From Spirochaetota bacterium (GTDB taxonomy: Bacteria > Spirochaetota > Brevinematia > DTOW01), in assembly GCA_025061835.1 (NCBI GenBank), contig JANXAC010000002.1:37185-101184 (forward strand): a stretch of 64,000 nt of DNA, written 5' to 3'. Both the position numbers and the translations under genes were made by a program. The number at the start of each line of letters is the position of its first letter. Position 1 is the first letter of the stretch. Shown here in pieces: positions 3,707 to 64,000 of this stretch. The notes beneath the pieces are model-generated. The model saw only the letters and a program-made list of their open reading frames with translations, had not been told where the DNA came from and made no database searches.

Positions 3707-4300
3707 CTACACTATCACTATCTCACCATCTTTTCCAGACAATACTCTTGATTTTTCGTTAAGGTGGTATATTCCAATCAGTAAAGATGCAATAGCATCA
3801 AGTTCATCTTGAGTGTATTCTCTAGATTCCAATTCTAGACCTAATGTATGGAATAGTTCTATAATACTATGCTTATCCTTCCTATTTACTCCAAAGTAAT
3901 CATACAGGGCGCCCGGTAGTGTCTCAAAAATTTTCTTACCCATACTTTCCAGTTCTCTTTTTATCACAAGTCCTCTCTCCGTTAGCATTCTCATAGGTCC
4001 CAGTGTTATAGGAAAGAATTTTATTCCAAGTTCTTTGAGCATTACATCACATTCCCTTAGGTGTCTTCCTTTCCTATCGTTTATTGTCTTTCTTCCTTCA
4101 GGAATACTCAATGGGGCATCTATGAATACAAAGTCAAAATCTCTTGAAATCTGTATAATATCTTCGTTGGAATGAATAATTCCAACAACTGTTTTGTCGT
4201 TGCGTATGAACGCATAACCTGTATTTCTCCTAGAGCTACCTGCAAGGTCTATACCTAAAACCCTATCCTTAAGAGTTAGTCTTTTAATACTAAACTCCAT
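3707..4300 (-). CDS. hypothetical protein, possibly an RNase H-fold nuclease-like protein
   Basis: 197-aa ORF; N-terminal VLGIDLAGSSRRNTGYAF resembles the first strand and acidic site of RNase H-like (YqgF/DUF429-type) folds; AGAGG just upstream of ATG. Family assignment tentative. Confidence 0.5.
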   Translation of the reverse strand: MEFSIKRLTLKDRVLGIDLAGSSRRNTGYAFIRNDKTVVGIIHSNEDIIQISRDFDFVFIDAPLSIPEGRKTINDRKGRHLRECDVMLKELGIKFFPITLGPMRMLTERGLVIKRELESMGKKIFETLPGALYDYFGVNRKDKHSIIELFHTLGLELESREYTQDELDAIASLLIGIYHLNEKSRVLSGKDGEIVIV

Positions 4301-29229: not shown

Positions 29230-29991
29230 ATGGAAAACTTGATAGGTATAGGGTATCTTAAATTCTTCAGTGAAGGAGATAATACTATGTATGATAAAGT
29301 TGACATAAATATCAAGAACGATAATGACTTTGTTGAATTAATTAACAAGTTCATAAAAGAAGGTAAATATTTCTACTTAAAGTTCTACGGTATATCACCA
29401 GAAATTGAAAGAAGGGTAAATCTAGCTATCACTAAGATTTTTGAGAATTACGAAAGGGGAGACTTATCTGACATTGTATATACTTGTGTTAAAGAACTAA
29501 TCCTCAACGCTAGCAAAGCTAACATAAAGAGAATAGTGTTTGAAGAACATAATGTTGATGTAAATGATGAAAAGAGCTTCTTGGTAGGTATGATGAAGTT
29601 CAAAGAAGAACTTTCCGAGATAAACCTACCTAAATATATTCCAAAACTAGCAAACAAGGATCTATACATAAGTGTAGCATTTTACCATTCCAAAGATGGT
29701 GTTAGGATTGAAGTTGTGAATAATGTAAGCATGAGTGAATTCGAAAACAAAAGGATAAGAGAGAAACTTAAGAAAGCGATGGGTTACGAAGATATATCAC
29801 AGTTTTACTTAGAACAAGGTGATGAACTTGAGGGAGCAGGATTAGGAATTGCCCTTATTGTAATGCTCCTTAAGGGAGTCGGTATTGACCCTTCACTTTT
29901 CAGAATATCCGGACCTAACAATAACTATGTCCTAGCCAGAATAGAAGTTCCTCTAACCGAAAATTATGTTAGTGTAAGAAAAAGAAATTAG
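29230..29991 (+). CDS. GHKL/HATPase_c-like protein (anti-sigma-factor-type kinase or histidine-kinase-like; tentative)
   Basis: N-box-like ELILNASKA, G1-like DGVRIEVVNN, G2-like EGAGLGIAL in the canonical order; GGAGG RBS 5 nt upstream of ATG. Confidence 0.42.
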   Translation: MENLIGIGYLKFFSEGDNTMYDKVDINIKNDNDFVELINKFIKEGKYFYLKFYGISPEIERRVNLAITKIFENYERGDLSDIVYTCVKELILNASKANIKRIVFEEHNVDVNDEKSFLVGMMKFKEELSEINLPKYIPKLANKDLYISVAFYHSKDGVRIEVVNNVSMSEFENKRIREKLKKAMGYEDISQFYLEQGDELEGAGLGIALIVMLLKGVGIDPSLFRISGPNNNYVLARIEVPLTENYVSVRKRN

Positions 29992-34346: not shown

Positions 34347-35108
34347 ATGTCTCTTAAGGAAATGATCTCAATATCTACAAAAGTAATCCCTTCAGTAGAT
34401 GAAATAATTTCAGAATCTCTCAAGAGACACAATTTTACTCCCCAAGATGTAGAAGAAAACTTTTCCGATTCAGTAGAAACTTTAGAAAGAATAGCAAATG
34501 GTATATATAATGAATATGAAAACAAATGTTTGGAAACTTTTGTACAAAAATGGATAAGACAAAGAAGACTAGACGACATAGAGAAAATAAAGATCCTCAA
34601 CTGTGAAAACTACGTAGAAAAACTTAAAAACGAGTTTCTTGAATTCGCAAAAGCAATCCAAAATCTTGAAAAACATCTTGGCAATATGAGAAAAGCAAGA
34701 GGAGGAAAGAGCTTTGAAAAGATCATTCTAATACTTCTTAGAATGATAGAGATTACTTGTGAGATACCGAAAGGAGAATATAGAAATAGGCTAAAGAGAA
34801 TAGATATAGTAATACCATCATCTCAGCAAGCCATAAATTATCCAGACAGGTCTGTATTTCTAACCTGTAAAAGGACATTGAGAGAAAGATGGAAACAAGA
34901 AGTCCCTCAAGTAGGACCTAACTAGACAGTGTACCTGATAACTATTGACGATGATATAAGTCAAGGAAAAGCCGAAGAAATACGTTATATGGGTTTAATA
35001 GCTTTCACAAAGGATAGTGTAGCACGCAATATAAACAAGCCTTGGATAAGAGGACTATCAAATTTACCCAAAGACATAAAACAAAAGATAGGAAGAGCAA
35101 AGAGGTAG
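34347..35108 (+). pseudogene. presumed restriction-endonuclease partner of the downstream methyltransferase, interrupted by one in-frame TAG (34923-34925)
   Basis: Own translation: the frame of the 192-codon ORF continues open for 60 more codons (TVYLITIDDD...KQKIGRAKR) to TAG 35106-35108, 3 nt before the methyltransferase ATG. Nuclease identity is inferred from position only (RIDIVIP/FLTCK could be a degenerate PD-(D/E)xK core). Confidence 0.4.
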
Positions 35109-35111
35109 AAT

Positions 35112-36374
35112 ATGATACAGAAAGAACTGTTTGACAAAGGTCTATTTAATACTGACTTCCTAGCATCAGATACCTCTCACAAGAGACAAAGAGAGCCTTA
35201 TTTTGACTTTAAGGGAATTAAAGCTAGTGAAGGTATTTACGGCATTCACCCATATCCAGCAATGTTCCATTACAGAGTCGTTAGAGAGTTAATAAAGAAT
35301 TTTTCAAATGATAATAGCATTGTTTTTGATCCGTTCCTAGGCTCGGGAGTCAGTGCTGTTGAGAGTATAATAAGCAGGAGAAATTTCATAGGATACGACA
35401 TAAACCCTCTAGGTGTTTTAATATCAAAAGTTAGGACAACACCTATACCAACAAGAGAACTTCTAGAGACTCTCAACTTCATAGTTCAAAATTTTGATAA
35501 TCAAGCAGCTGAAAAACCCTCCTTCACAAATATTGATTACTGGTTTAATGAGAGTGTGGCTAAATCTCTATCAAAAATAAAGAAAACAATCCTGCAGATA
35601 CAGGATAGAGTAAGAGACTTTTTCTTAGTAGCATTTTCAGAAACGGTAAGAAAGGTATCACTAACAGACCATAATGAATATAAGCTTTTGAAAGACAGTT
35701 CAAAGATAGTAGAAGATGTTAATGTTATAAAAACATTTAACGAGATCTCCCAAAGAAACATAAAACTACTAACAGATTTTTACAGAACCAATGAAGTTTC
35801 AGGCAAAATAATCTCAATTCAAGTTAGGAACATATTAGATGGATTGGACTTTGACTACCCTGCTGACTTAATTATAACCTCTCCTCCTTATGGTGACTCT
35901 AGAACTACTGTTGCCTATGGTCAGTTTTCAAGACTATCTCTACAATGGATAGGAATAAACGAAAATATTGACAAAAAATCACTAGGAGGCAAGATTAGTA
36001 AAATTCATACTAACTTACCTTCAGAGACTTTATATACTACCCTCAAGGAAATTCTAAAAGTTGATGAAAGGAGAGCTGTAGAAATATTTTCGTTCTACGA
36101 AGATCTTTACAACGCTATAAAGGTAATAGCAAAATCGGTAAAGAGAGGTGGTTATGTATGCTTTGTTGTCGGAAACAGAAGAGTTAGAAAAGTAGATCTT
36201 CCAACGGATATAATCTCTGCTGAATTCTTTATTAATGAAGGACTAGAACATATTAAAACAATAGTTAGAAAAATCCATAACAAGAGAATACCAATTCAAA
36301 ATTCTCCCTCCAACATAAAAGGAAATACTGACACAACGATGCGATACGAATATATTCTGATACTCCGTAAGTAA
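35112..36374 (+). CDS. amino (N4-cytosine or N6-adenine) DNA methyltransferase
   Basis: SAM-binding FxGxG-type motif (VFDPFLGSGVSAV) followed about 175 aa later by catalytic SPPY (IITSPPYGD), an alpha-class-like arrangement; AAAGAGG RBS. Confidence 0.8.
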   Translation: MIQKELFDKGLFNTDFLASDTSHKRQREPYFDFKGIKASEGIYGIHPYPAMFHYRVVRELIKNFSNDNSIVFDPFLGSGVSAVESIISRRNFIGYDINPLGVLISKVRTTPIPTRELLETLNFIVQNFDNQAAEKPSFTNIDYWFNESVAKSLSKIKKTILQIQDRVRDFFLVAFSETVRKVSLTDHNEYKLLKDSSKIVEDVNVIKTFNEISQRNIKLLTDFYRTNEVSGKIISIQVRNILDGLDFDYPADLIITSPPYGDSRTTVAYGQFSRLSLQWIGINENIDKKSLGGKISKIHTNLPSETLYTTLKEILKVDERRAVEIFSFYEDLYNAIKVIAKSVKRGGYVCFVVGNRRVRKVDLPTDIISAEFFINEGLEHIKTIVRKIHNKRIPIQNSPSNIKGNTDTTMRYEYILILRK

Positions 36375-36500: not shown

Positions 36501-38969
36501 CTAGATAAACAGATTAATGTTTGAGTTTGAAGCGTTTGCGATGTAAGTAGCAACACCTCCTATTTTTATACCATCAATGAGTTCTTCTCTTCTTATTCCC
36601 ATAACATCCATAGACATCTGACAGGCAACAATTTCAACGCCACTCCTCATCGCATTCTGTATCAGTTCTTCAAGAGTTGAGATATTCTTCTTCTTCATAA
36701 GCCATCTTATCATCTTAGGTCCTATGCCAAACATATTCATTTTTGACAATTTTAGGTTTTCAGTCCCTTTTGGTAGCATCATACCAAACATCTTTGATAT
36801 GAGATCTTTCTTGACTTTTACCTTAGAGTTTTTCTTAAGAGCATTCAGACCCCAGAATGTGAAAAACATACTAACTTTCTTTCCCGCAGATAAGGCACCG
36901 TTTGCTATAACAAATGACGCTATCAGTTTATCAAGGTCATCATCAAATACTATTATGGTAGCAGAATTGTTAGTTGAGATAACATTTGAAGTAGAGAGTG
37001 TTTCTTGCGAAGACTTTTCTATCACAGCCTCAATTATTCCCTTATCTTGCTTTAGAGATAGTAATTTATTACCTGTAACATCGGTCCAAGCCTTGACATC
37101 ATTAGCAAAACCCGGGTCAGTTGCCTTTACAACGACTTTTGCACCTCTTTGGAGAGAATCCATACTCTGTTTCAACTTGAGTATAGGACCTGGACACTGT
37201 AATCCACAAGCATCAACTTCAACAACTACTCCTTCCTTTGTCTCCTTAAGTGGTTCTTGAGTCACAAGGTCAGATAGGTCAACTCTATATCCAGTATATA
37301 TATCCTCATTACCTTGCTTCTGGGTTACTACTTCATAAGTCTTGTATCCACCCGTAAGGTTATAAACCTCCTCAAATCCATTCTGATAAAGTATCCTACA
37401 AGCAACATAAGCTCTTAAGCCAACTCCACAATACACAATTATCTTTTTATCTCTTGGCAACTTATCAAGGTTATTTCTCAGTTCATCAACAGGTATATTA
37501 ACAGAACCTTCAATGTGTCCAAGATCATACTCATCTTTGGTTCTAACATCAAGCACAAAAATACTAGATTTATCACTGTTCAAAAACTCATCCCAAGTTA
37601 TTATCTTCTGCTTCCCACTCAAAACATTCTCTGCCACATAACCTGCTATGTTAACAGGATCTTTCGCCGAAGAGTATGGTGGAGCATAAGCATGATCTAG
37701 GTCAATCAAATCATAAACAGTTAATCCTGCTTGTATAGCTGTTGATAGAACATCTATCCTTTTATCAACTCCATCATATCCAACAGCCTGTGCCCCAAGT
37801 ATCCTACCATCTTCAGGAGAAAATATGAGCTTGAGAGACATAGGAAGAGCACCAGGATAATACCCTGCGTGAGATGAAGGGTGTATTATAACATACTTAT
37901 ACGGTATCCCTTCTCTCTTGAGTAGTTTTTCAGTTGCACCTGTAACAGCAACAGTTATATCAAAAACCTTCGCTATAGCAGTTCCTATAGACCCCTTATA
38001 CCTTCTAACATTACCAAAGACTATGTTATCGGCAACAATCCTACCTTGTAAGTTAGCAGGCCACGCCAAAGGAATACCTATCTTCTTCTTTATGACAGGA
38101 TGATAAACTTCAATAGCATCTCCAATAGCATATATATCAGGGTCCGAAGTTTGTAAGTAATCATTCACAACTATATGTCCTCTCTCTCCTATCTCAAGTC
38201 CCGCTTCCTTTGCTAGTTTACTCTCTGGTCGCACACCAATAGAAAGTATCACCATATCAACTGATAGTTTTCTACCACTACTCAAGTTAACTACTATCCT
38301 ACCATCAAGGTCCTTATCAAAACTTGCTACACTATCCTTAAGATAGAACTCAACATTCTTCGTTTTTAAGTGCTGATGAACCAAAGCAGCCATCTCAAAG
38401 TCAATAACCCCCATAACTTGTTCCATCGCTTCAACAATCGTAACCAGAATGCCTCTATGCGCTAGATTTTCCGCCATCTCAAGCCCAATAAATCCTGCCC
38501 CTACTATCACCGCTCTCCTCGGTTTGTTTGAATCAATAAATTCCTTTATCCTATCAGTATCTCTTATGTCTCTAAGAGTGAAGATATTTGGTAAATCTAT
38601 ACCCGGTATCGGTGGTTTAACTGGTGTTGCTCCCGGTGAAAGCACAAGTTTATCATACTTCTCCGTATATTCATTACCAGTTCTCAAATCCCTAACTAAA
38701 ACTTCTTTTTTCTCTCTATCAATCTTCAAAACTTCACTCCTAACCCTAACATCTACATTAAACCTCCTGATAAAGCCTTCAACTGTTTGAACCAAAAGAT
38801 TACTCCTCTCTTTTATCACACCACCTATGTAGTAAGGTAACCCACAGTTAGCATAAGATATATACTCACCTCTCTCAAAAACCACTATCTCTGCCCTCTC
38901 ATCCAGTCTTCTCAACCTAGCAGCAGTTGACATACCTCCAGCAACACCACCTACTATCACGCACTTCAT
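36501..38969 (-). CDS. four-domain sulfur oxidoreductase: CoA-disulfide reductase/NADH oxidase - rhodanese - TusA - DsrE-like
   Basis: FAD/NAD Rossmann VIVGGVAGG with redox Cys in SYANCGLPY; rhodanese active loop YCGVGLRA; TusA CPxP motif (CGLQCPGPIL); C-terminal DsrE-like region (EIVACQMSMD). Track start 38981 overlaps GGAGG; true ATG likely 38969 (MKCVIVGG). Confidence 0.8.
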   Translation of the reverse strand: MKCVIVGGVAGGMSTAARLRRLDERAEIVVFERGEYISYANCGLPYYIGGVIKERSNLLVQTVEGFIRRFNVDVRVRSEVLKIDREKKEVLVRDLRTGNEYTEKYDKLVLSPGATPVKPPIPGIDLPNIFTLRDIRDTDRIKEFIDSNKPRRAVIVGAGFIGLEMAENLAHRGILVTIVEAMEQVMGVIDFEMAALVHQHLKTKNVEFYLKDSVASFDKDLDGRIVVNLSSGRKLSVDMVILSIGVRPESKLAKEAGLEIGERGHIVVNDYLQTSDPDIYAIGDAIEVYHPVIKKKIGIPLAWPANLQGRIVADNIVFGNVRRYKGSIGTAIAKVFDITVAVTGATEKLLKREGIPYKYVIIHPSSHAGYYPGALPMSLKLIFSPEDGRILGAQAVGYDGVDKRIDVLSTAIQAGLTVYDLIDLDHAYAPPYSSAKDPVNIAGYVAENVLSGKQKIITWDEFLNSDKSSIFVLDVRTKDEYDLGHIEGSVNIPVDELRNNLDKLPRDKKIIVYCGVGLRAYVACRILYQNGFEEVYNLTGGYKTYEVVTQKQGNEDIYTGYRVDLSDLVTQEPLKETKEGVVVEVDACGLQCPGPILKLKQSMDSLQRGAKVVVKATDPGFANDVKAWTDVTGNKLLSLKQDKGIIEAVIEKSSQETLSTSNVISTNNSATIIVFDDDLDKLIASFVIANGALSAGKKVSMFFTFWGLNALKKNSKVKVKKDLISKMFGMMLPKGTENLKLSKMNMFGIGPKMIRWLMKKKNISTLEELIQNAMRSGVEIVACQMSMDVMGIRREELIDGIKIGGVATYIANASNSNINLFI

Positions 38970-39307
38970 AAAAGCCTCCATAAACTACAAACAGTATATA
39001 GTATAATAAATATATTGAGATAATTATATCAAAGTTTGAAAAATCTACAATACTTGTAGTATTTTACATAACCAAAATAGATTAGATTTTATAAAGACAG
39101 CCTAAATCGTTAGAAAAAACACTAAACTTTATCACAACTCAAAAGAAACACACCTATGTAGAGAGGAAATTACTCACACTAGGATTACAGCAAAACCTTA
39201 AGGGTATATTACCTTTTAAATACTACTTTACCAAACTTTGAAGGTGAATAGGATATTAGGTTTTATCTTTAGTCCTCCCATCCAGATTGTTTATATTATC
39301 TACACAA

Positions 39308-40663
39308 ATGTATAAAAAAACTACTATCCTAGTTGTAGATGATGAGACTGAAATACTAGTCTCAATAAATAACATCCTCCAAGAAGAGTTTGATGTATTA
39401 GTATCAAGAGACTTTTCTCTATCTCTAAAAATACTGGAAGAAATACAACCTGATGTAGCATTAATTGACCTAAAACTAGGAGATAGGGACGGTAGGGAGA
39501 TCATAAAATCTATCAAAGAGAGGGACTTGAAGACACAGATTATAGTCATATCTGCCTACACTGATATTGAAAATATCGTTGATAGCATCAAACTAGGTGC
39601 TTTTGATTTTGTTGAGAAACCTATCTCACCAGCTAGATTGAAGGTTGCTATCAAGAATGCTCTTGAAAATCTAGAATTAAGAAAACTACTAGAAAACAAA
39701 ATCCTCTCTGAAGGAATAACTACTCAAAACCCTAGGATGAAAGAGATAATCAAACTCGTTGAAAAATCCGCATCCACTAGTTTTCCAGTTCTAATACTCG
39801 GCGAATCTGGAACTGGTAAGGAGAGAATAGCATCTCTCATCCATAATTTAAGTAAGAGAAGATATAAAGAGTTTGTTAAACTCAACTGTTCTGCTATACC
39901 TTCTGAACTTTTTGAGTCTGAGTTGTTTGGATACGAAAAAGGTTCATTCACTGGAGCATACCAAAGTAAGAAAGGTAAGTTTGAAATAGCAAACGGTGGA
40001 ACACTATTCCTAGATGAGATCGGCGATTTGTCTCTGGAACATCAGGCAAAACTCCTACGAGCAATAGAATACGGAGAGATAACCAAAATAGGTAGTAAAG
40101 AAACAATAAAGGTTGATGTTAGGATAGTATCTGCTACCAACAAAGACCTTGAGAGAATGGTCAAAGAAAAAGCATTCAGAGAAGACTTGTTTTACAGAAT
40201 AAATGTCATCACAATACATCTACCACCACTCAGAGAAAGAAAAGAAGATATAAAAATACTCGCAGAATTTTTCCTAAAAGAGACGATACAAAAAGAAGGA
40301 TTACCAAACAAGTATTTAACAGACGAAGCAATCCATTTGCTTGAAAACTATGACTACCCCGGTAATGTAAGAGAACTTAAAAACATCATTCAGAGGCTTG
40401 TCATAGTATCAGAAAAGGAAGTTATAACCAAGGAAGATGTCAATAAAGTTATAGCAACAACCAATCTCAATAGAGATTACGATAAACTTGTATCAATCCT
40501 ATCATCCAAACTACCACCCAACACCGCAAGAGAAGAATTTGAAAAAATCTACCTAAAGCACCACCTTGAGAAAAACCAAAACAACGTCTCAAAAACTGCA
40601 CTCTCATTAGGTATCCTACCAAACAACCTATTAAGAAGACTCAAAGAACTAGGTTTGAAATAA
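39308..40663 (+). CDS. sigma-54-dependent two-component response regulator (NtrC family)
   Basis: Receiver domain (ILVVDDE...ALIDLKLGDRDG), AAA+ sigma-54 activator domain with Walker A GESGTGKE and GSFTGA (GAFTGA-type) loop, C-terminal HTH. Track start 39287 is TTG; first ATG 39308 gives the usual receiver N-terminus. Confidence 0.85.
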   Translation: MYKKTTILVVDDETEILVSINNILQEEFDVLVSRDFSLSLKILEEIQPDVALIDLKLGDRDGREIIKSIKERDLKTQIIVISAYTDIENIVDSIKLGAFDFVEKPISPARLKVAIKNALENLELRKLLENKILSEGITTQNPRMKEIIKLVEKSASTSFPVLILGESGTGKERIASLIHNLSKRRYKEFVKLNCSAIPSELFESELFGYEKGSFTGAYQSKKGKFEIANGGTLFLDEIGDLSLEHQAKLLRAIEYGEITKIGSKETIKVDVRIVSATNKDLERMVKEKAFREDLFYRINVITIHLPPLRERKEDIKILAEFFLKETIQKEGLPNKYLTDEAIHLLENYDYPGNVRELKNIIQRLVIVSEKEVITKEDVNKVIATTNLNRDYDKLVSILSSKLPPNTAREEFEKIYLKHHLEKNQNNVSKTALSLGILPNNLLRRLKELGLK

Positions 40664-40982
40664 ACATAAAAATTGTGAAACATCAAAAGTCAAAATCATT
40701 GATTAAGAATTAAAAAACCTAAACATTCTCAAAGAAAAACGCTACAAAAACTTCAAAGATAGTTATCACACAACAAACATAATCACTATCAACTACGATA
40801 TATCACTTTTGATACAGTGACAGAACTTTTAACTTCTAGAACGGTATTAGATTACGACAAATCCACCTACTTACTAAAAACTTACATTCAAATGGGCTTA
40901 AGGATACCTATTAAGAAGTTTCTAGGTTCAATCTAAAAGCAAATTTCACTAGTAATAACTAGACACTTCCAAATGAAAGTTT

Positions 40983-40997
40983 TGGCACGCTAATTGA
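40983..40997 (+). promoter_or_regulatory. candidate sigma-54 (-24/-12) promoter: TGGCACG-N4-TTGA
   Basis: Perfect -24 element TGGCACG at 40983-40989; -12 element TTGA (consensus TTGC) at 40994-40997; about 30 nt upstream of AAAGGAGG and ATG 41029; lies downstream of the sigma-54 activator gene. Confidence 0.4.
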
Positions 40998-41028
40998 AAA
41001 GCATTAATATATGTAAAAGGAGGTATGT

Positions 41029-41814
41029 ATGAAACAAGTAGTGAGAGTGTCAGTTTTGTCGCTTATAGCGGTTGTGTTTGCTCTAACCGCTACACATATC
41101 AATGCTGAGGATGATATTAAGGTAACAAGAGCCTCAGACAATATGTTTAAAGGTGAGGGTTTTGGAGGTCCAATAGTCAGTGCTTTTTACATTCCTAGTA
41201 TAGCTAGTCTGAATGAAAAACTACAATCACTAGGATACCAACAGAGATTTGGTGAAGTTTTGTTAGGAATAGGAGGACAAGGATTTGGCTATACTGGCAA
41301 TGTACTAATGGGTGGAGGTGGCTCTATAATTATATCATCCTCAATAGAAGGAAAGTTTAACGGAACGAATGTAGTAGCAACATTATCTGGTAGTTTTGGT
41401 TTCTTTGAGTTTGGATACGCTGTTATTAAAGCTCCTAATTTTGAATTTGCACCTATTCTAGGCATTGGTGGAGGCGGCTACACGCTTTCATTTAAGTCAA
41501 AATCTGAGGCTTACGATTTTGATACCATAGCCAAAAATCCATACTCCTATGCGAACGGAATATCTTATGGAGACTTCAGCATTGAAGTTGGAATACTTAC
41601 CTATGGTAAATTAATCCTATCCGAAAACATAATCCAACTATGCGATGACCTGAAAATCAAATCATACAGCACAGTAGGACTAATACTAAAGGCTAGTTAT
41701 ATCTTCTCAATAATAGGTAATGATGACTCTATAATATCAGAACCAAGTTTTGGAGATCATACTATCAGTCTAGGTTTATCCATAACCTTCGGTGGCAAAA
41801 GCGAGAAGTTATAA
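41029..41814 (+). CDS. secreted glycine-rich hypothetical protein
   Basis: Signal peptide (LIAVVFALTATHINA); repeated GxGG/GFG tracts; 261 aa; strong RBS AAAGGAGG. Confidence 0.55.
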   Translation: MKQVVRVSVLSLIAVVFALTATHINAEDDIKVTRASDNMFKGEGFGGPIVSAFYIPSIASLNEKLQSLGYQQRFGEVLLGIGGQGFGYTGNVLMGGGGSIIISSSIEGKFNGTNVVATLSGSFGFFEFGYAVIKAPNFEFAPILGIGGGGYTLSFKSKSEAYDFDTIAKNPYSYANGISYGDFSIEVGILTYGKLILSENIIQLCDDLKIKSYSTVGLILKASYIFSIIGNDDSIISEPSFGDHTISLGLSITFGGKSEKL

Positions 41815-41824
41815 CTTACAATTT

Positions 41825-41850
41825 GAGGGTGGCACAGCCACCCTTTGAAA
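41825..41850 (+). terminator. perfect 8-bp-stem hairpin (AGGGTGGC-ACA-GCCACCCT) with short T run; intrinsic terminator or attenuating structure
   Basis: Inverted repeat at 41826-41844 followed by TTTGAAAATT; sits in the 44-bp gap between two same-strand genes. Weak U-tract, so termination may be partial. Confidence 0.3.
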
Positions 41851-41858
41851 ATTAACTA

Positions 41859-42419
41859 GTGTTAGATATAATTAGACTAATCGGTAGTATCTTTTACCCC
41901 TTGGTAGAAGGAATTAGAATAATAGGAGTTCTAATAGGTATTACTGCTCTATCCTCTACCGAAATTGGTTTGGAAAATCCTAGGTTTTTTGAAGACAACA
42001 GAGGAAACTTGATCTTCTCATTCAACCTAAAAAACACCTTCAACGATAAGTTCCAAAGGCTTGTTGAAAGAGGGATAACATCAGGATATGCTATAGATGT
42101 TTCATTCCAAACAACCAAGATACTTGTGAATGTCTCAATAACTAACAAAGTTACATACAATAACTCAAAGAATATGTTTCTGGTTCATCTTCATAAGAAT
42201 GCTACGACAAAAAGTATTACAATAAACAGTATAGAGGAAGTAAAAACTGTTATGAACCAAATAAACATTCTTCTTCCAAAGTCTGGAATAGAAGGAGAAG
42301 AAGTAACGGTAAGGATAAAAGCAGAACCGTTTTTTGAGTATCAGGAGTTTAGTGATATAGATCCTTCAAGAGCTGTATGGGGCAGAAAACTGAGTGTTGA
42401 AATAAAGTATAGACTATGA
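41859..42419 (+). CDS. hypothetical membrane-associated protein (186 aa)
   Basis: ORF track; starts at GTG, no in-frame ATG in the first ~100 codons; hydrophobic N-terminus; 3' end overlaps the convergent histidine kinase gene. Confidence 0.42.
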   Translation: MLDIIRLIGSIFYPLVEGIRIIGVLIGITALSSTEIGLENPRFFEDNRGNLIFSFNLKNTFNDKFQRLVERGITSGYAIDVSFQTTKILVNVSITNKVTYNNSKNMFLVHLHKNATTKSITINSIEEVKTVMNQINILLPKSGIEGEEVTVRIKAEPFFEYQEFSDIDPSRAVWGRKLSVEIKYRL

Positions 42420-43562
42420 CACAACTGGTAGTCTTACAACTACTTCTGTTGTACCTTCAGAAACGCTAGAGTTTACCGTTATATCACCATAACTCTCAAG
42501 TATTATCTTCCTTGTAATTGCTAACCCTATCCCCCTTCCACCTTTCTTATATGATACTCCAAAGTCAAATATCTTATCCAAAATCTCTTTAGGAATACCC
42601 CCACCATTGTCCCAAAATCTTACAATAGCAGAATCTCCATCCCTAGATACACTAACTCTAACAATACCCTTACCATCGGTAGCCTCAAAACTATTCTTGA
42701 GTATATTAACAAAAGCGTTCATAAGCAAAACCCTATCAACCATAACGAAAACTTCACTTTCACCACTCTCAAACTCAAACTGGAAAAATAGCCTCAACTC
42801 TTCAAGAATAGAAATCAAGTTTTCTTTTCTAGGAACTGGTTTCGGAAGAGATGAAATCTCTCTTATTTTGGAAAGAAACTGGTTTATATTATCCAATATT
42901 TTGTCAATCCTTCTAATAGTTTCAACGTTTAAACCTTTACCGCTTTGAATTGAGTTTTTTACTTCCGTATATACCGGCGTAAGAAGATTACCAACCTCAT
43001 GAACCATAACTTTACTTACATCTCTCCAACCTTCAAACCTCTCAAGTTCCGCAACCCTTTTTTCATACTCAACTAACCTAGACACTAGGTTTTGAAACGA
43101 CAACGATATCTTACCTATATCCTTAAATATAGGTTTAGGAAACGCTATATTTAGACTAACTGGGAACTTGAAGTTAGTAAGAAAATCAACTAGCAACCTC
43201 AACTGCCTTGTTATCAGTAAAGAAAGTAGCACAGAGGACAGAACAAAAACTAGAAAGGTAGCACCTGATGTTCTTATCACACTGTTCATAGCATTCCTAA
43301 ATATCTCCTCTTGCGAGACTAACAAAAAACTAATCTTTCTATCCAGATACATTAGTTCCTTTTCAACCTTCTCAATCTCTCCTCTGCTAACAAGAGCCCT
43401 AATCTCTCCAATCTTATTTGAAATCTCAAACATATTGAACTTACCTACCATAGTATTCCATAGGCTAAATCCAAACCAAACGGTTAGAACAGAATAAACT
43501 GCTGACACCAAAATAACCAGAATAATTATAACCTTCCTCATAACTAAATTTTGACTAAACAT
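42414..43562 (-). CDS. sensor histidine kinase (two transmembrane segments, DHp + HATPase domains)
   Basis: H-box HEVGNLLTP; N-box NAFVNILKNSFEA; G1 FWDNGGGIP; G2 GGRGIGLAI; N-terminal and mid hydrophobic segments. Confidence 0.85.
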   Translation of the reverse strand: MFSQNLVMRKVIIILVILVSAVYSVLTVWFGFSLWNTMVGKFNMFEISNKIGEIRALVSRGEIEKVEKELMYLDRKISFLLVSQEEIFRNAMNSVIRTSGATFLVFVLSSVLLSLLITRQLRLLVDFLTNFKFPVSLNIAFPKPIFKDIGKISLSFQNLVSRLVEYEKRVAELERFEGWRDVSKVMVHEVGNLLTPVYTEVKNSIQSGKGLNVETIRRIDKILDNINQFLSKIREISSLPKPVPRKENLISILEELRLFFQFEFESGESEVFVMVDRVLLMNAFVNILKNSFEATDGKGIVRVSVSRDGDSAIVRFWDNGGGIPKEILDKIFDFGVSYKKGGRGIGLAITRKIILESYGDITVNSSVSEGTTEVVVRLPVVS

Positions 43563-43642
43563 CCGTAAGTTTTAAAAACTTACATTCAAAACCCCTTGAG
43601 TCTAAATTTTATTAAACGATAGTTCAGAAGTATTATTGGATA

Positions 43643-44536
43643 CTAGTATGACTCATCAAATACAGAAACTTCTTCGTCTTCCTGTGTGTTGTAAGTTAGG
43701 TAATCCTCACAGTTCTCGGCATCATAAACTATTACGGTTTGATCTCTAACCTCAATCATCCTATAATAACCATCTTTACCTATTGAACCCGTTTGAACAT
43801 GGTAAGGACCTACTCCTTTTGCAACCAATGGGAAGGATGTTATAAGGTTTGATCCATTATCAAAAACTCTGTTTTTGTGAGTATGACCTGACAATATCAA
43901 AGATACATCGTAACTTGTTATTATCCTCTGAAACTCTTCTCTACCTAGTATGAATACATCCTCTTGTATTCCATTTTTCGGGCTTAAAAAAGGATGGTGG
44001 GTAATGATGATGTTTGTATTGCTAGAGTTTTTCAGCGCATCTTCAAGAAATTCTAGTTGATGCTTAAATAGACCAACACCTTCGGAACTAGGTATCATCA
44101 AGTTGTGTAGATGGAAGGAATAACTATAGTCATACCCCGTGTCAAGGAATATGAGCCTTACATTCTTAATATCAACATAGTAATTCAAAAATTCACTTCC
44201 AATGAAACTTCTGTAATTTGGGATATCCTTAAGAGAGAATTTAAAAAGTGTTCCGTATTCGTGATTACCCGGGACAAAATACAGCGGTATCTTCATCTCT
44301 CTGTCAAAGTAGAAAATACCATCGGAGTAGTAGAATAGATCATTTAATATCTCATAGTTTGACTTTGCTAAAATTCCCTCGCCAAACTCAACTATGTCAC
44401 CAGAAATTATAACTACATCAGGAGACAGCAGATTAAGGTTCATCCTCAAAATTTCTATATTTCTAACATAATTCCTAGAGAACAAGTTGATGCTATCTAT
44501 ATGCAAATCAGTAAGATGTAGTATTCTCAAACTCAT
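43643..44536 (-). CDS. metallophosphoesterase (calcineurin-like)
   Basis: LHLTDLHI, GDIVEFG, GNHEYG, ITHHP, GHTHKN motifs in canonical order; 297 aa. Confidence 0.8.
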   Translation of the reverse strand: MSLRILHLTDLHIDSINLFSRNYVRNIEILRMNLNLLSPDVVIISGDIVEFGEGILAKSNYEILNDLFYYSDGIFYFDREMKIPLYFVPGNHEYGTLFKFSLKDIPNYRSFIGSEFLNYYVDIKNVRLIFLDTGYDYSYSFHLHNLMIPSSEGVGLFKHQLEFLEDALKNSSNTNIIITHHPFLSPKNGIQEDVFILGREEFQRIITSYDVSLILSGHTHKNRVFDNGSNLITSFPLVAKGVGPYHVQTGSIGKDGYYRMIEVRDQTVIVYDAENCEDYLTYNTQEDEEVSVFDESY

Positions 44537-44948
44537 CTAAAGTTTCCTCAAAAATATTATAAATGATAAAGTTTCAAAAGTGTAACTTAGACAAACTTAA
44601 ATTTGTTTAAGAGTAATGTTGAGAATTTCAGAGAGTGTAGAACTAGGAATGTCTTTGATTGTTCCTAGTCTGCCATCCTTTAATAGCACCTATGATATTC
44701 ATTAGGTAAAACTTTTCGTTTTTCATAATACTCTCTATCCTCACTTCAAACACCTATACTTCGCCCAGAATAAAATCTGCTAAATTCCTAAAGAATTCAC
44801 CTTTGAAAAGTTCACTTTTTCACTCCTCTTGCCTTTATCTTACAAAAGTAAAAGGAAGTTTTCTAACATCAATTTTTACAAAACCCTACTCCAAACTTCA
44901 GGTAGTAAATACTTGAATAGAAAAGATTCTTATCTAAATAATTTCACT

Positions 44949-60593: not shown

Positions 60594-62021
60594 ATGAAAA
60601 CTACAAATATTGAAATGGTAAATGAATACGAATGGATATACAAAAGAAGAGAAGGGATGAATACGAATGTTAGGTTTTTTTGTTCAAAGGAAATTCTTGA
60701 AGGTATGGATGATGCTGTTTTGACGCAGGCTATTAATGTTTCTTACCTACCTGGTATAGTTGGGGACGTGATTGTTCTTCCTGATGCACACTGGGGGTAT
60801 GGCTTTCCAATAGGGAGCGTGACTGCTTTTGATGAGAATGGTGTTTTTACAGTAGGAGGTGTGGGATTTGATATAAACTGTGGTGTTAGGACATTAAAAA
60901 CAGACTTACAATTAGGAAGAATTTCAAAAAAGGATCTAGAACTCCTTTCAAAGAAGCTATTTGAAACTATCCCAGCCGGTCTTGGCAAAGATGGGGATAT
61001 TAAACTCTCAAAGAAAGAACTTTTCAAAGTTTTAACAGAAGGCGTTAAATGGTGTCTTGATAATGGATATGCAGAAAGAGAAGACATTGAAAACATAGAA
61101 GAGAATGGAACTGTTGAATCTGCTATACCAGACTATATTAGTGAAGAAGCGATAGAAAGGGAGAAGGGACAGATTGGGACTCTAGGGTCTGGGAATCATT
61201 ATCTAGAGGTTCAGGTTGTTGATGAGATATACAATAGAAGTATAGCAGAAGTATTTGGACTTTTTGAAGGACAAATTGTGATAACGATACATACTGGCTC
61301 AAGAGGTTTCGGACATCAAGTAAATACAGACTTCATTAGGATATTTCTCAATGCAGTTGAAAAATACAAAATACCTATTAAAGAAAAGGAACTTGCCTGT
61401 GCTCCAATAAAATCAGATGAAGGTAGGAGATACCTAGGTGCAGTGAAATGTGCTATAAATTACGCATTTGCAAATAGACAAATTATTACATACTTGGTAA
61501 GAAAGGTATTTAAGAAGGTTTTTAGAAACACATCAGTGGAAATACTTTATGATGTTGGTCATAACAATGTCAAGGAGGAGTTACATAATATAGACGGTAA
61601 GAGGAAAAAAGTTTTCGTTCATAGAAAAGGAAGCACTAGAGGTTTTGGTCCTGGAACATTAGGTATTCCCGAGAAGTATTCAAAGACGGGACAACCTGTG
61701 ATAGTAGGTGGCTCAATGGGATCATTCTCGTACATTCTATCTGGAACAGATATTGCTATGGAGAAAACATTCGGTTCAACGATACATGGTGCAGGCAGGT
61801 CTCTGTCAAGAAACCAAGCAAAGAAAAATTTTCCTTACGAGAAGATTATAAAGCAACTTGAAAATAGAGGTATAACTGTTTTGTCATCATCAAAAGCCGG
61901 TATCTCTGAAGAAGCACCACAAGCATACAAGGATATAGACAAAGTTATAGAGTCTGTTTCTTCATCAAGAATATCAAATAAGGTAGCACGACTAAGACCA
62001 ATAATAACGATAAAAGGATGA
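60594..62021 (+). CDS. rtcB: RNA-splicing ligase RtcB
   Basis: Metal/GTP-site motifs GFDINCG, GSGNHYLEVQ, HTGSRGFGH, HNNV, TIHGAGR; 475 aa. Confidence 0.9.
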   Translation: MKTTNIEMVNEYEWIYKRREGMNTNVRFFCSKEILEGMDDAVLTQAINVSYLPGIVGDVIVLPDAHWGYGFPIGSVTAFDENGVFTVGGVGFDINCGVRTLKTDLQLGRISKKDLELLSKKLFETIPAGLGKDGDIKLSKKELFKVLTEGVKWCLDNGYAEREDIENIEENGTVESAIPDYISEEAIEREKGQIGTLGSGNHYLEVQVVDEIYNRSIAEVFGLFEGQIVITIHTGSRGFGHQVNTDFIRIFLNAVEKYKIPIKEKELACAPIKSDEGRRYLGAVKCAINYAFANRQIITYLVRKVFKKVFRNTSVEILYDVGHNNVKEELHNIDGKRKKVFVHRKGSTRGFGPGTLGIPEKYSKTGQPVIVGGSMGSFSYILSGTDIAMEKTFGSTIHGAGRSLSRNQAKKNFPYEKIIKQLENRGITVLSSSKAGISEEAPQAYKDIDKVIESVSSSRISNKVARLRPIITIKG

Positions 62022-62743: not shown

Positions 62744-64000
62744 ATGATTGAGATATTATTAGCGTGTTTCATAAATTATTCCGTTTTCACAATATATTCT
62801 CTTCTGATAACTCTGGTAGAAAGGAAGAAACTGTTAGGTTTCCTACAAGAGTTATCAATATTCCTAATCTTTATTTCTCTTCTTATGGCGACCTTGTTAA
62901 AGATCCTTAATCTTCAGGTATTTCTATATGATTTACTCATATATCTATCAGCATTTTTATCGTTGATTATCCTTAATATCAGACTTGCTGATTACATAAG
63001 AACTAAAAAGTTTTACAAATACAAAACAATTAATCTTTTAAGATTGCTACTAGTTTATTCATCCGTAGCTGCTGTTATCTTAGTAGTAGTTTCAATAGTC
63101 TTTCTAGATGATTTATCATTCAAAAATCTACTCATAGTCCTAATAATACTCGCATCATCTATATCAATATTCTCAATAATATATTTGAAGATAACTAATG
63201 AAATATCAAGATTAAAGATTTTTGAAGATCTTTCACTAATAATTCCACTCTTAGTATCAGTTGTTTTGGATCTATATAGGGTTGATAGTGAAATATTTAT
63301 ATCCTTCATTCCATTTTCAATATCACCAATACTTCGTTCTGTTGTATCTTCTATCTCACCACTATCATACAATCAGGAGATCAGAGTCAAGATACTTGCC
63401 TTATTTTTAAGCGCGTCTCTTACGGTCCTTCCAATTCTGTATATTAGCATAATATCCTTAGTCAATTTATATGCATCTCACCAATTATTGGTCATTTCAA
63501 GTTTTTTTGTACTCATGTTATCGGCACTTATATCGGTAGTGATATACAAACTAATCCTTAACAAGATTAATGATGTTTTGACTAAATTTGTGAGAATGAA
63601 TATAAGTAGTATAAGAGAAGAAGAAGTATCTTCGTTGACGGTAGGAGAGTTAGTCAATAGACTTCAAAAATTCATTGAGAGGTTTTTTGGTAGGAACATA
63701 GTGGAGCTATACACTTTTAGTAGCTTTGAGAAAACATTGAACCCATTTGTAGTGCTGGATGGTGATAAGGGCTTTGTGGAATCAGCAAAGAATTTTAAAC
63801 TTACAGATAAAGACTTAAATATTCTAGTTTCAAGGTTTCACAAATTCTTCACAAAGGATAATGTTGAAAGTCCTGAATTCTTCAAAAAGTCTGATAACGA
63901 TATTCTGATACCTATTACCTATCAAGGTGAGCTTAAATTTGTATTGACCATAAGGTTATCTGATAGATTTGAGATAAATAGAGCAGTGAAGACTTTCCTA
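62744..64000 (+). CDS. polytopic membrane protein with cytoplasmic C-terminal domain (possible sensor); 3'-truncated by window edge
   Basis: Own translation: ATG 62744 (AGGTGA RBS 4 nt upstream) opens a frame with no stop through base 64000 (419 codons); first ~230 residues are mostly hydrophobic segments. Not in the ORF track because it has no stop in the window. Confidence 0.45.
   Translation, partial: MIEILLACFINYSVFTIYSLLITLVERKKLLGFLQELSIFLIFISLLMATLLKILNLQVFLYDLLIYLSAFLSLIILNIRLADYIRTKKFYKYKTINLLRLLLVYSSVAAVILVVVSIVFLDDLSFKNLLIVLIILASSISIFSIIYLKITNEISRLKIFEDLSLIIPLLVSVVLDLYRVDSEIFISFIPFSISPILRSVVSSISPLSYNQEIRVKILALFLSASLTVLPILYISIISLVNLYASHQLLVISSFFVLMLSALISVVIYKLILNKINDVLTKFVRMNISSIREEEVSSLTVGELVNRLQKFIERFFGRNIVELYTFSSFEKTLNPFVVLDGDKGFVESAKNFKLTDKDLNILVSRFHKFFTKDNVESPEFFKKSDNDILIPITYQGELKFVLTIRLSDRFEINRAVKTFL

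Follow-up and report, generated by a model that had tools for sequence, protein, structure and literature searches.

The locus raises the question of which genes a sigma-54 two-component module controls in a Brevinematia-type spirochaete, and what they might do. The window, i.e. the whole stretch of 64,000 nucleotides that was analysed, had been the subject of a sequence-only reading. This reading described an NtrC-type activator with a GSFTGA loop, followed after 320 bp by TGGCACG-N4-TTGA, a strong ribosome binding site and the gene of a signal-peptide-bearing glycine-rich protein. Then came a hairpin, a 186-codon GTG-initiated membrane ORF and a convergent sensor histidine kinase overlapping the 3' end of that ORF. 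All of these elements could be confirmed. Together with a candidate enhancer, they are arranged as follows:

39308-40663, forward strand: gene of an NtrC-family response regulator/bEBP (Pfam Response_reg, Sigma54_activat, AAA_lid_14, HTH_8)
40787-40814, no strand assigned: candidate enhancer (UAS) of two abutting 14-bp palindromes, TATCAACTACGATA and TATCACTTTTGATA, recognised by conservation
40983-40998, forward strand: sigma-54 type -24/-12 promoter, TGGCACGCTAATTGAA; its TGGCACG-N4-TTGA part (40983-40997) is TGGCACGCTAATTGA
41018-41024, forward strand: Shine-Dalgarno AAGGAGG, read from the sequence
41029-41814, forward strand: gene of a 261-aa exported protein, predicted 8-stranded outer-membrane beta-barrel of a family not in Pfam
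41825-41845, forward strand: GC-rich stem-loop, GAGGGTGGC-ACA-GCCACCCTT, then a T/A-rich tail, TGAAAATT, to about 41853
41859-42419, forward strand: gene of a 186-aa DUF4390-like (PlrP-like) small envelope protein, GTG start, weak Pfam DUF4390 match
42414-43562, reverse strand: sensor histidine kinase gene, DHp and CA domains (Pfam HATPase_c, E 6e-20)

The activator combined a REC domain, an AAA+ sigma-54 interaction domain (Sigma54_activat, E 1.9e-71) and a Fis-type HTH, with Response_reg, Sigma54_activat and HTH_8 all above their Pfam cut-offs. Its GSFTGA loop, which begins at nucleotide 39941, is intact; the corresponding loop reads GAFTGA in the same-cassette activators of loci L006, L023 and L021, to which the window protein is 58, 46 and 39% identical, respectively. 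Aquifex NtrC1 and NtrC4 were the nearest solved structures (E 2e-94). We assigned the activator to no named subfamily because it reached none of the NCBIfam equivalog cut-offs (AtoC 391 of 714, NtrC 381 of 559, NtrX 347 of 600). A search for an RpoN-box motif in the 64-kb window and the fetched loci returned none.

The promoter element starts exactly 320 bp past the activator stop codon and its 3' end lies 31 bp ahead of the ATG at 41029. On both strands of the 64 kb, TGGCAC-N5-TTG[AC] has this one exact match, where about 0.12 would be expected from base composition. The element has the GG at -24 and the spacing of a sigma-54 promoter; at -12 the G is kept and the C is replaced by A. Promoter-like elements of this kind precede the orthologous barrel gene in 11 independent lineages with GC contents of 31-60%, and end 25-75 bp before its ATG. 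TGGCAY-N5-TTG was kept in upstream regions that are otherwise divergent, the TTG at exactly N5 being invariant, and the Shine-Dalgarno is preserved in distant upstream regions as well. The canonical TGGCAC-N5-TTGC occurs in L006, L021, L028, L031, L039, L040 and L042, and L036 combines TGGCAA at -24 with TTGC at -12. The element had previously been described as perfect at -24 and deviating at -12. As a description of the sequence this holds, TTGA being present, but not as the diagnosis of a defect: inside the Brevinematia clade the fourth base drifts between A, T, G and C, while the canonical C is found in L006 and likewise in most lineages outside the clade (all seven more distant ones). Judged from this pattern, the TTGA of the window is local drift.

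The same nucleotides could also be read as an ordinary sigma-70 promoter with TTGGCA (40982-40987) as -35, TAATAT (41005-41010) as -10 and a 17-bp spacer, the sigma-54 appearance then being coincidental. A consensus scan indeed gave this pair 9 of 12 matches. Such sites, however, are no commoner here than chance predicts (20 found against 21.1 in shuffled sequence), L003, L005, L002 and L021 have no -10-like hexamer at the same spacing, and the linked activator is of the sigma-54 type with a sigma-54 contact loop. We consider a sigma-70 promoter highly improbable here. The sigma-54 reading of the module, in which activator and kinase would drive the promoter of an exported protein, is strongly supported by sequence conservation across the 11 lineages.

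Upstream of the promoter, TATCA-N4-TGATA is repeated to form a 28-bp double palindrome centred on GATATATC. The window contains this palindrome a single time, where 7e-6 occurrences are expected from composition and 0.05-0.06 from shuffles with mismatches allowed. Upstream of the barrel gene it was found in 11 independent lineages, 70-250 bp further upstream than the conserved promoter. The exact pattern is present once ahead of this gene in L001-L007, L018-L022, L031, L038 and L042, and variants with one degenerate half-site in L028, L036, L039 and L040. Barrel-bearing cassettes across these lineages thus appear to have kept the same candidate activator-binding site together with the promoter. 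The HTH segment of the activator is conserved among the compared cassette sequences, as would fit a conserved binding site; we infer that the activator binds the double palindrome. The palindrome was not seen at loci with stand-alone barrel genes, and both it and the promoter were absent ahead of four paralogues that stand alone in Brevinematia/Spirochaetes MAGs (L009, L012, L013, L015). L009 and L014 are located on the same contig.

In terms of gene order, the window holds a rearranged version of a widespread cassette whose usual order is sigma-54 promoter, OMP, small protein, kinase, activator; in this copy, the regulator gene has moved upstream and the kinase gene points the opposite way. 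The four-gene cassette recurs in many uncultured bacteria, and we found no published description of it. Barrel, small-protein, kinase and activator genes are collinear in L021/L022/L038, L023, L028, L031, L036, L039, L040 and L042. Among kinase-anchored loci the order small protein, kinase, activator is invariant and the small protein is the sole non-catalytic gene constant in the cassette; about half of these cassettes have no barrel gene. Conversely, the lineage of L007 and L018 has the barrel and small-protein genes as a pair that adjoins neither a kinase nor an activator gene.

The first gene downstream of the promoter encodes a 261-aa protein with an N-terminal hydrophobic signal, a cleavage-type site between INA and ED and a glycine content of 13.8% overall (15.3% of the mature part). 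It matched no Pfam or NCBIfam model. The protein had been taken for a secreted product without recognisable motif. Fold prediction instead yields an 8-stranded outer-membrane beta-barrel, so that the protein is recognisable by its predicted fold and would not be a soluble secreted protein. The protein has a signal peptide, and its model, an antiparallel barrel that closes with about 8 strands, resembles solved outer-membrane barrels; 2 of 40 relatives matched OMP_b-brl (PF13505) weakly. Its C-terminus (...SITFGGKSEKL) is not aromatic, a conserved F being located eight residues from the end; the protein carries neither a C-terminal aromatic beta-signal nor the signature of a curated OMP family. 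Sequence identity to NspA, OmpW, the OmpA/OprF N-domains and Thermus TtoA was 9-11%. In contrast to these small 8-stranded barrels, the present family is marked by conserved motifs very rich in glycine and by loop helices that are conserved as well. We could delimit it as a family of about 270 clusters that carried no annotation so far.

The barrel gene is followed by a stem-loop of 8 Watson-Crick pairs and one G-T pair (-16.6 kcal/mol, z -3.4). Stem-loops occupy the equivalent place in L003, L005, L002, L006, L007 and L018, with a compensatory C-G to U-A change in L005. L021 has unrelated sequence there which nevertheless forms a stem-loop, and L023 has no stem-loop at this place. The element is probably an attenuating terminator or a stabiliser of the mRNA 3' end.

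The GTG start of the 186-aa protein at 41859 is corroborated by relatives that have ATG at the same codon, the first codons differing only synonymously. One conserved N-terminal hydrophobic segment lies within residues 7-33. This ORF, too, had been regarded as motif-less cargo, a view that its family match and gene linkage do not bear out. It scored 18.8 bits (E 1.2e-3) with DUF4390 (PF14334), below the Pfam gathering cut-off of 27, but its 72% identical homologue P0007 scored 28.5 bits; P0006 (21.1 bits) and P0008 (16.9 bits) are both under the cut-off. Among 18 diverse family members, 8 matched DUF4390 (E up to 1) and 10 did not, and no other family recurred. Wherever a kinase-anchored locus extended upstream of the kinase gene (16 of 16 loci), the gene immediately 5' of it was that of the small protein, whether a barrel gene is present or not; in the window the two genes are convergent and overlap by 6 bp. 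The N-terminal segment, as export signal or anchor, and the position beside the kinase gene of an NtrC/NtrX-type system are what would be expected of a DUF4390/PlrP protein. On its profile matches, the 186-aa protein is probably a distant DUF4390/PlrP-like protein.

In Bordetella, PlrP (DUF4390) was identified genetically as a third component that restrains the phosphatase activity of PlrS (PMC13001219), and by analogy the small protein may act on the cassette kinase. Against this has to be weighed the possibility that the small protein is dedicated to the barrel, as its periplasmic chaperone or assembly factor, and does not modulate the kinase at all. The two genes are adjacent and predicted to be co-transcribed in all barrel-bearing loci, they stand alone as a pair in L007/L018, and ZraP has likewise been described as a chaperone (PMC4987338). 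Such a role does not account for the constant position next to the kinase gene, barrel-less loci included, nor for DUF4390 as the sole recurrent family match, where the evidence favours kinase control (PMC13001219). We therefore regard a pure chaperone function as quite unlikely and retain the reading of the small protein as a modulator of the kinase.

The kinase has hydrophobic segments within residues 1-35 and 94-125 that would enclose a loop of about 58 aa on the outside. Its H-box, GW[KR][DE]..[KR]..VHE[VI][GN]N, is common to the cassette kinases of the window, L002, L006, L021 and L023. Pfam searches found no PAS, PDC or HAMP domain in the window kinase; HAMP was detected in the L023 homologue only. 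The best NCBIfam models, AtoS and PrsK, remained far under their cut-offs.

With moderate confidence, we propose an envelope-signalling system on the lines of ZraPSR or PlrPSR, in which the activator drives an OprH-like barrel and an accessory that feeds back; we infer a signal related to the cell envelope. The membrane kinase (42414-43562, reverse strand) would phosphorylate the NtrC-type activator (39308-40663), which would bind the double palindrome at 40787-40814 and, by DNA looping and ATP hydrolysis, open the sigma-54 promoter at 40983-40998. One transcript would then yield the outer-membrane barrel protein and the DUF4390-like protein, the latter anchored or exported at the inner membrane. 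Because the conserved stem-loop follows the barrel gene, we suggest that the barrel protein is made in excess. As judged from its predicted fold and from analogy, it may be an effector and the main output, altering or stabilising the outer membrane like OprH of oprH-phoP-phoQ. The DUF4390-like protein would feed back on the kinase like PlrP on PlrS or ZraP on ZraS, and the system would thereby tune its own sensitivity.

The barrel might, on the other hand, be part of the sensor, with barrel, DUF4390-like protein and kinase forming a cross-envelope relay in which the small periplasmic protein would report outer-membrane state to the kinase, a logic comparable to that of RcsF threaded through outer-membrane proteins or of FecA-FecR. 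Wherever the barrel gene is present it lies directly 5' of the small-protein gene, and the pair stays intact even where it is separated from the kinase and activator genes (L007, L018-L020). The most conserved barrel motifs (LN..L...GY, F..L.NP.R and the GIGGGG region) are partly in predicted loops and not in membrane strands. In L002, where the activator gene is elsewhere, the kinase gene follows bamA. Small protein, kinase and activator, however, also form cassettes with no barrel gene nearby (L024/L025, L026, L029, L034/L035, L037), so that a relay would not be obligatory, and the position of the barrel gene, first behind the regulated promoter and ahead of a probably attenuating stem-loop, is the one usually taken by genes of abundant output proteins. 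A relay seems unlikely to us. Equally doubtful is its extension to a new envelope-spanning device in which the barrel reports outer-membrane state through a DUF4390-like periplasmic coupler and the activator amplifies the sensor's own components. If true, DUF4390 would have the defined role of coupling an outer-membrane protein to a kinase, and spirochaete-like and other non-proteobacterial diderms would possess a sigma-54-dependent outer-membrane surveillance pathway.

The envelope-signalling system that we favour shares features with known systems. Cassette relatives keep the order of plrP-plrS-plrR from Bordetella (NtrYX family; PMC13001219): a small exported DUF4390-type gene, then a membrane kinase, then an NtrC/NtrX-type regulator. 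Unlike in PlrPSR, the DUF4390 match is distant, with the window copy under the cut-off, and the window kinase has neither the PDC nor the HAMP-PAS of NtrY and PlrS and does not classify with the NtrY/NtrX family. Since PlrP is proposed to work through the PDC domain of its kinase, the small protein of the cassette must make contact in another way. The cassette regulator, unlike PlrR, has kept a loop of the GAFTGA type together with a clear sigma-54 target. The sigma-54 promoter also governs the small-protein gene, and a barrel gene is attached.

ZraPSR of E. coli and Salmonella is likewise a sigma-54-dependent two-component system whose activator drives an accessory gene: ZraR drives the sigma-54 promoters of zraP and zraSR, and ZraP, a periplasmic accessory, feeds back on the system in an envelope-stress response (PMC4987338). 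The cassette small protein, in contrast, has no ZraP/CpxP-type Pfam match and no sequence relation to ZraP, and ZraPSR has no barrel-protein target. Membership in ZraPSR was rejected (ZraR model 297 against a cut-off of 760, ZraS 55 against 479); the likeness lies in circuit logic only. The oprH-phoP-phoQ system of Pseudomonas aeruginosa differs by its OmpR-family regulator, sigma-70 promoter and lack of an accessory protein (PMC11129675), and OprH belongs to a different barrel family with no detectable sequence similarity.

DUF4390 has only recently been tied to two-component signalling, by Bordetella genetics and in proteobacteria only, where a survey found it in beta-, gamma- and zeta-proteobacteria and Magnetococcia (PMC13001219). 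The cassette, hosted by Brevinematia and other non-proteobacterial lineages, extends the three-component idea of DUF4390 protein, kinase and regulator to distant, mostly uncultured bacteria. It adds what the Bordetella system lacks, namely a clear direct target, a sharply defined candidate activator site and a sigma-54 promoter. Since these are conserved across 31-60% GC, the circuit should lend itself readily to reconstruction and testing in a surrogate host. Brevinematia-type spirochaetes, for their part, gain a candidate outer-membrane response regulon.

The elements that the sequence-only reading had assembled into a sigma-54 two-component module driving a secreted glycine-rich protein (39308-43562) were all present in the window when the sequence was read directly. 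Together with a double palindrome, a candidate enhancer, they are arranged as follows:

39308-40663, + strand: NtrC-type activator gene (Response_reg, Sigma54_activat at E 1.9e-71, AAA_lid_14, HTH_8; GSFTGA loop)
40787-40814: two abutting 14-bp palindromes, TATCA-N4-TGATA followed by TATCA-N4-TGATA, the second conserved island upstream
40983-40997, + strand: sigma-54-type -24/-12 site TGGCACGCTAATTGA, exactly 320 bp past the activator stop
41018-41024, + strand: ribosome-binding site AAGGAGG, then ATG at 41029
41029-41814, + strand: gene of the 261-aa protein
41825-41845: stem-loop folding at -16.6 kcal/mol (z -3.4)
41859-42419, + strand: 186-codon ORF with a GTG start at 41859 (ATG at the same codon in relatives)
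42414-43562, - strand: sensor kinase gene, overlapping the 3' end of the 186-codon ORF by 6 bp

The promoter was the sole exact match to TGGCAC-N5-TTG[AC] on both strands of the 64-kb window, where composition predicts about 0.12. The 28-bp palindrome pattern also occurred once, against 7e-6 expected from composition and 0.05-0.06 in mismatch-tolerant shuffles. For comparison we used fetched loci encoding relatives of the 261-aa protein, a genome scan with a narrower barrel alignment (6 loci) and a kinase-anchored metagenome scan; such loci are designated by L-numbers. TTGGCAY-N5-TTG was kept in the otherwise divergent upstream regions of the relatives. Eleven independent lineages (31-60% GC; 300 bp upstream printed) had a common layout, in which a GATATATC-centred double palindrome is followed after 70-250 bp by the -24/-12 element and, 25-75 bp further on, by the ATG. 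Fifteen cassette loci had the exact 28-bp pattern, once each and in every case upstream of the gene for the 261-aa protein; in the remaining four lineages one half-site was degenerate. When distant upstream regions were compared by ungapped 12-mers, the ribosome-binding site alone emerged, since variable spacers interrupt both regulatory motifs; these were sought by pattern instead. Conservation of the promoter and palindrome across 11 lineages strongly supports, at the level of sequence, the sigma-54 promoter postulated before the glycine-rich protein gene. A search of the window and the fetched loci for an RpoN-box motif gave no match. The deviating -12 element (TTGA) is real in the window. 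Lineages outside the Brevinematia clade have the canonical TTGC here. Within the clade the fourth position varies, being A in the window, L003 and L007, T in L005 and L002, G in L018 and C in L006. In L036 the -24 element reads TGGCAA. We found nothing usable in the literature on sigma-54 in Brevinema or on sigma-54-controlled outer-membrane proteins of spirochaetes.

A sigma-70 reading of TTGGCA-17-TAATAT is unsupported. Relatives did not retain the -10-like hexamer at the corresponding distance, and in a consensus scan sigma-70-like sites were equally frequent in shuffled DNA.

Four stand-alone paralogues from Brevinematia or Spirochaetes (L009, on the same contig as L014; L012; L013; L015) had neither palindrome nor promoter. 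In one distant family member that stands alone (27% identity, host GC 47%), a canonical TGGCATGTGCTTTGC precedes the ATG by 38 bp (L010 5948-5962; L011 5362-5376), with no activator gene within 6 kb. Judging from this site, sigma-54 control of the family may reach beyond the cassette.

The 261-aa protein carries a signal peptide and contains 13.8% glycine. A Spirochaetes MAG encodes an identical protein, listed as hypothetical, and its closest relatives come from Brevinematales/Brevinematia MAGs. It matched no Pfam or NCBIfam family, and PDB sequence searches were empty. Word-indexed protein searches returned only 5-6 close relatives for either small gene; an exhaustive profile search with the 261-aa protein gave, at E <=1e-3, 270 similarly long clusters, none of them named. 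Structure prediction, suggested earlier, was run on this protein. A first model from 5 close homologues only was unusable (pLDDT 50.7). AlphaFold2 with a 40-sequence alignment from the exhaustive search reached pLDDT 88.7 and pTM 0.78, and placed eight long strands after the signal helix. Structural comparison gave the following matches:

Structures compared with the model of the 261-aa protein (name, PDB entry, score)
Legionella porin III, 9nh2, 14.1
NspA, 1p4t, 14.1
OmpW, 2f1t, 13.9
Thermus TtoA, 3dzm, 13.7
OmpA barrel, 3nb3, 13.6
OprF N-domain, 4rlc, 13.3
OprH, 2lhf, 9.0

The top Foldseek matches were likewise all outer-membrane barrels, e.g. OmpA, Ail, Pla and OpcA. These matches make the protein most plausibly an outer-membrane barrel with eight predicted strands, belonging to a sequence family that is new, rather than a soluble secreted protein.

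The cargo genes had also been said to carry no recognisable motif. This holds for the barrel at the level of Pfam, and is too strict for the 186-aa protein, which weakly matches DUF4390. All five close homologues matched this Pfam family (best 28.5 bits, cut-off 27), as did 8 of 18 diverse homologues, among which no other family recurred; the window copy scored 18.8 bits. Membership is thus borderline. Word-indexed searches with the small protein did not reach the proteobacterial DUF4390 proteins, and PDB sequence searches with the barrel and small-protein family profiles gave nothing meaningful. The GTG at 41859 is the real start: relatives have ATG in its place, the N-terminal residues are conserved, and the differences in the first codons, as in the alignment with L005, are all synonymous. 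A possible internal sigma-70 promoter at 41845-41872 (TTGAAA-16-TATAAT, 11 of 12 matches) was discarded: its -10 hexamer lies past the start codon in conserved coding sequence (GAT ATA ATT), and the pair probably arises from AT-rich codons.

A GC-rich hairpin 3' of the barrel gene was also present in L003, L005, L002, L006, L007 and L018, with one compensatory change (C-G to U-A) in L005 relative to the window. L021 had a hairpin of unrelated sequence at the same place, and none was found after the barrel gene of L023. We infer that the stem-loop could serve as an attenuator or 3'-end stabiliser, which would raise barrel output relative to the small protein. No known RNA was detected by Rfam in window 38900-44700.

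Kinase-anchored loci, annotated by HMM, had the small-protein gene directly 5' of the kinase gene in 16/16 cases with upstream sequence, and the activator gene directly 3' of it wherever sequence was available. The barrel gene lay directly 5' of the small-protein gene in L028, L031, L036, L038, L039, L040 and L042, likewise in L021/L022 and L023, and was absent from L024/L025, L026, L029, L034/L035 and L037. The usual arrangement is thus a collinear series of sigma-54 promoter, barrel, small protein, kinase and activator. Compared with it the window is rearranged, with the activator gene upstream and the kinase gene inverted. Compared with L021 and L023, the window activator was 39-46% identical, the kinase 30-33%, the barrel 29-31% and the small protein about 16-23%. 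In L002 no activator gene adjoins, and the L007/L018 lineage has kept just the pair of barrel and small protein; both retained palindrome and promoter. Antisense control through the convergent kinase overlap was dismissed as a conserved feature, the genes being collinear in all 16 of these metagenome loci and in L021-L023. The metallophosphoesterase gene at 43643-44536 was not retained as a module member, its linkage being limited to the closest relatives.

In Bordetella, PlrP, whose domain is DUF4390, is the periplasmic third component of the NtrYX-family system PlrSR and restrains the phosphatase activity of the kinase (2026 genetics; PMC13001219); plrP lies directly 5' of plrS-plrR (PMC13001219). 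The cassette is similar to PlrPSR in that an accessory gene, here DUF4390-like, lies 5' of the kinase gene. It resembles ZraPSR, a sigma-54 system driving its own periplasmic accessory (PMC4987338), in that its circuit, too, would drive its accessory, and oprH-phoP-phoQ, an autoregulated two-component operon led by a small barrel (PMC11129675), in that a small barrel comes first. In the reading that we favour, with some reserve, the barrel would be an effector driven by the activator, along with an accessory that feeds back on the kinase. The main rival would make the barrel part of the sensor, which we consider unlikely. The window kinase has an extramembrane loop of only about 58 aa, PDC and PAS domains were not found in it, and no NCBIfam equivalog cut-off was reached. 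Roles given here to the cassette proteins are predicted or inferred.

Several further observations concern the surroundings of these elements. The half-site TATCR-N4-YGATA (14 bp) occurred four times in the window, including the two in the candidate enhancer, against 0.34 expected. The single copies lie at 29310-29323, inside an ORF, and at 63531-63544; no -24/-12 match was listed close to either. L037, which has no barrel gene, carries palindromes TATCCATGGAGATA and TATCAATATTGATA, 66 bp apart, just upstream of its small-protein gene (3881-3960); a -24/-12 match was not detected there, and the palindromes may form some other type of autoregulatory site. The 3' end of the activator gene and the mid-intergenic region share a 13-nt exact direct repeat ACCTATTAAGAAG (40626-40638 and 40906-40918) and an 88%-complementary 16-nt inverted repeat (40602-40617 and 40901-40916). 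Enterobacterial rtcB is sigma-54-dependent. The window contains an rtcB RNA-ligase gene at 60594-62021 (Pfam RtcB, E 1.5e-161) with neither an activator gene nor a -24/-12 site seen adjoining; a TGGAAC-N5-TTGC match at 61742 falls inside the gene.

In L002 (5031-7502; Brevinematales MAG GCA_026415355.1) the gene immediately upstream of the cassette kinase gene is bamA (POTRA and Omp85 domains), and the barrel gene has a gene for an MscS-type channel upstream of it. In the barrel-less low-GC cassettes L026 (2260-3301), L029 (2314-3332) and L035 (2266-3283), small protein, kinase and activator are preceded by a 256-273-aa ORF and by ORFs that look ExbB/TolQ- and ExbD-like from their N-terminal sequences. 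Between leuS and a CoA-disulfide-reductase/rhodanese/TusA/DsrE fusion gene the window has, at 34347-36374, ORFs for an EcoRII-C-like endonuclease (192 aa) and an N6/N4 DNA methylase (420 aa). In L003, whose barrel protein is 86% identical, leuS and the fusion gene are adjacent, and the two ORFs look like an inserted restriction-modification pair. The GC content of the window is about 35%.
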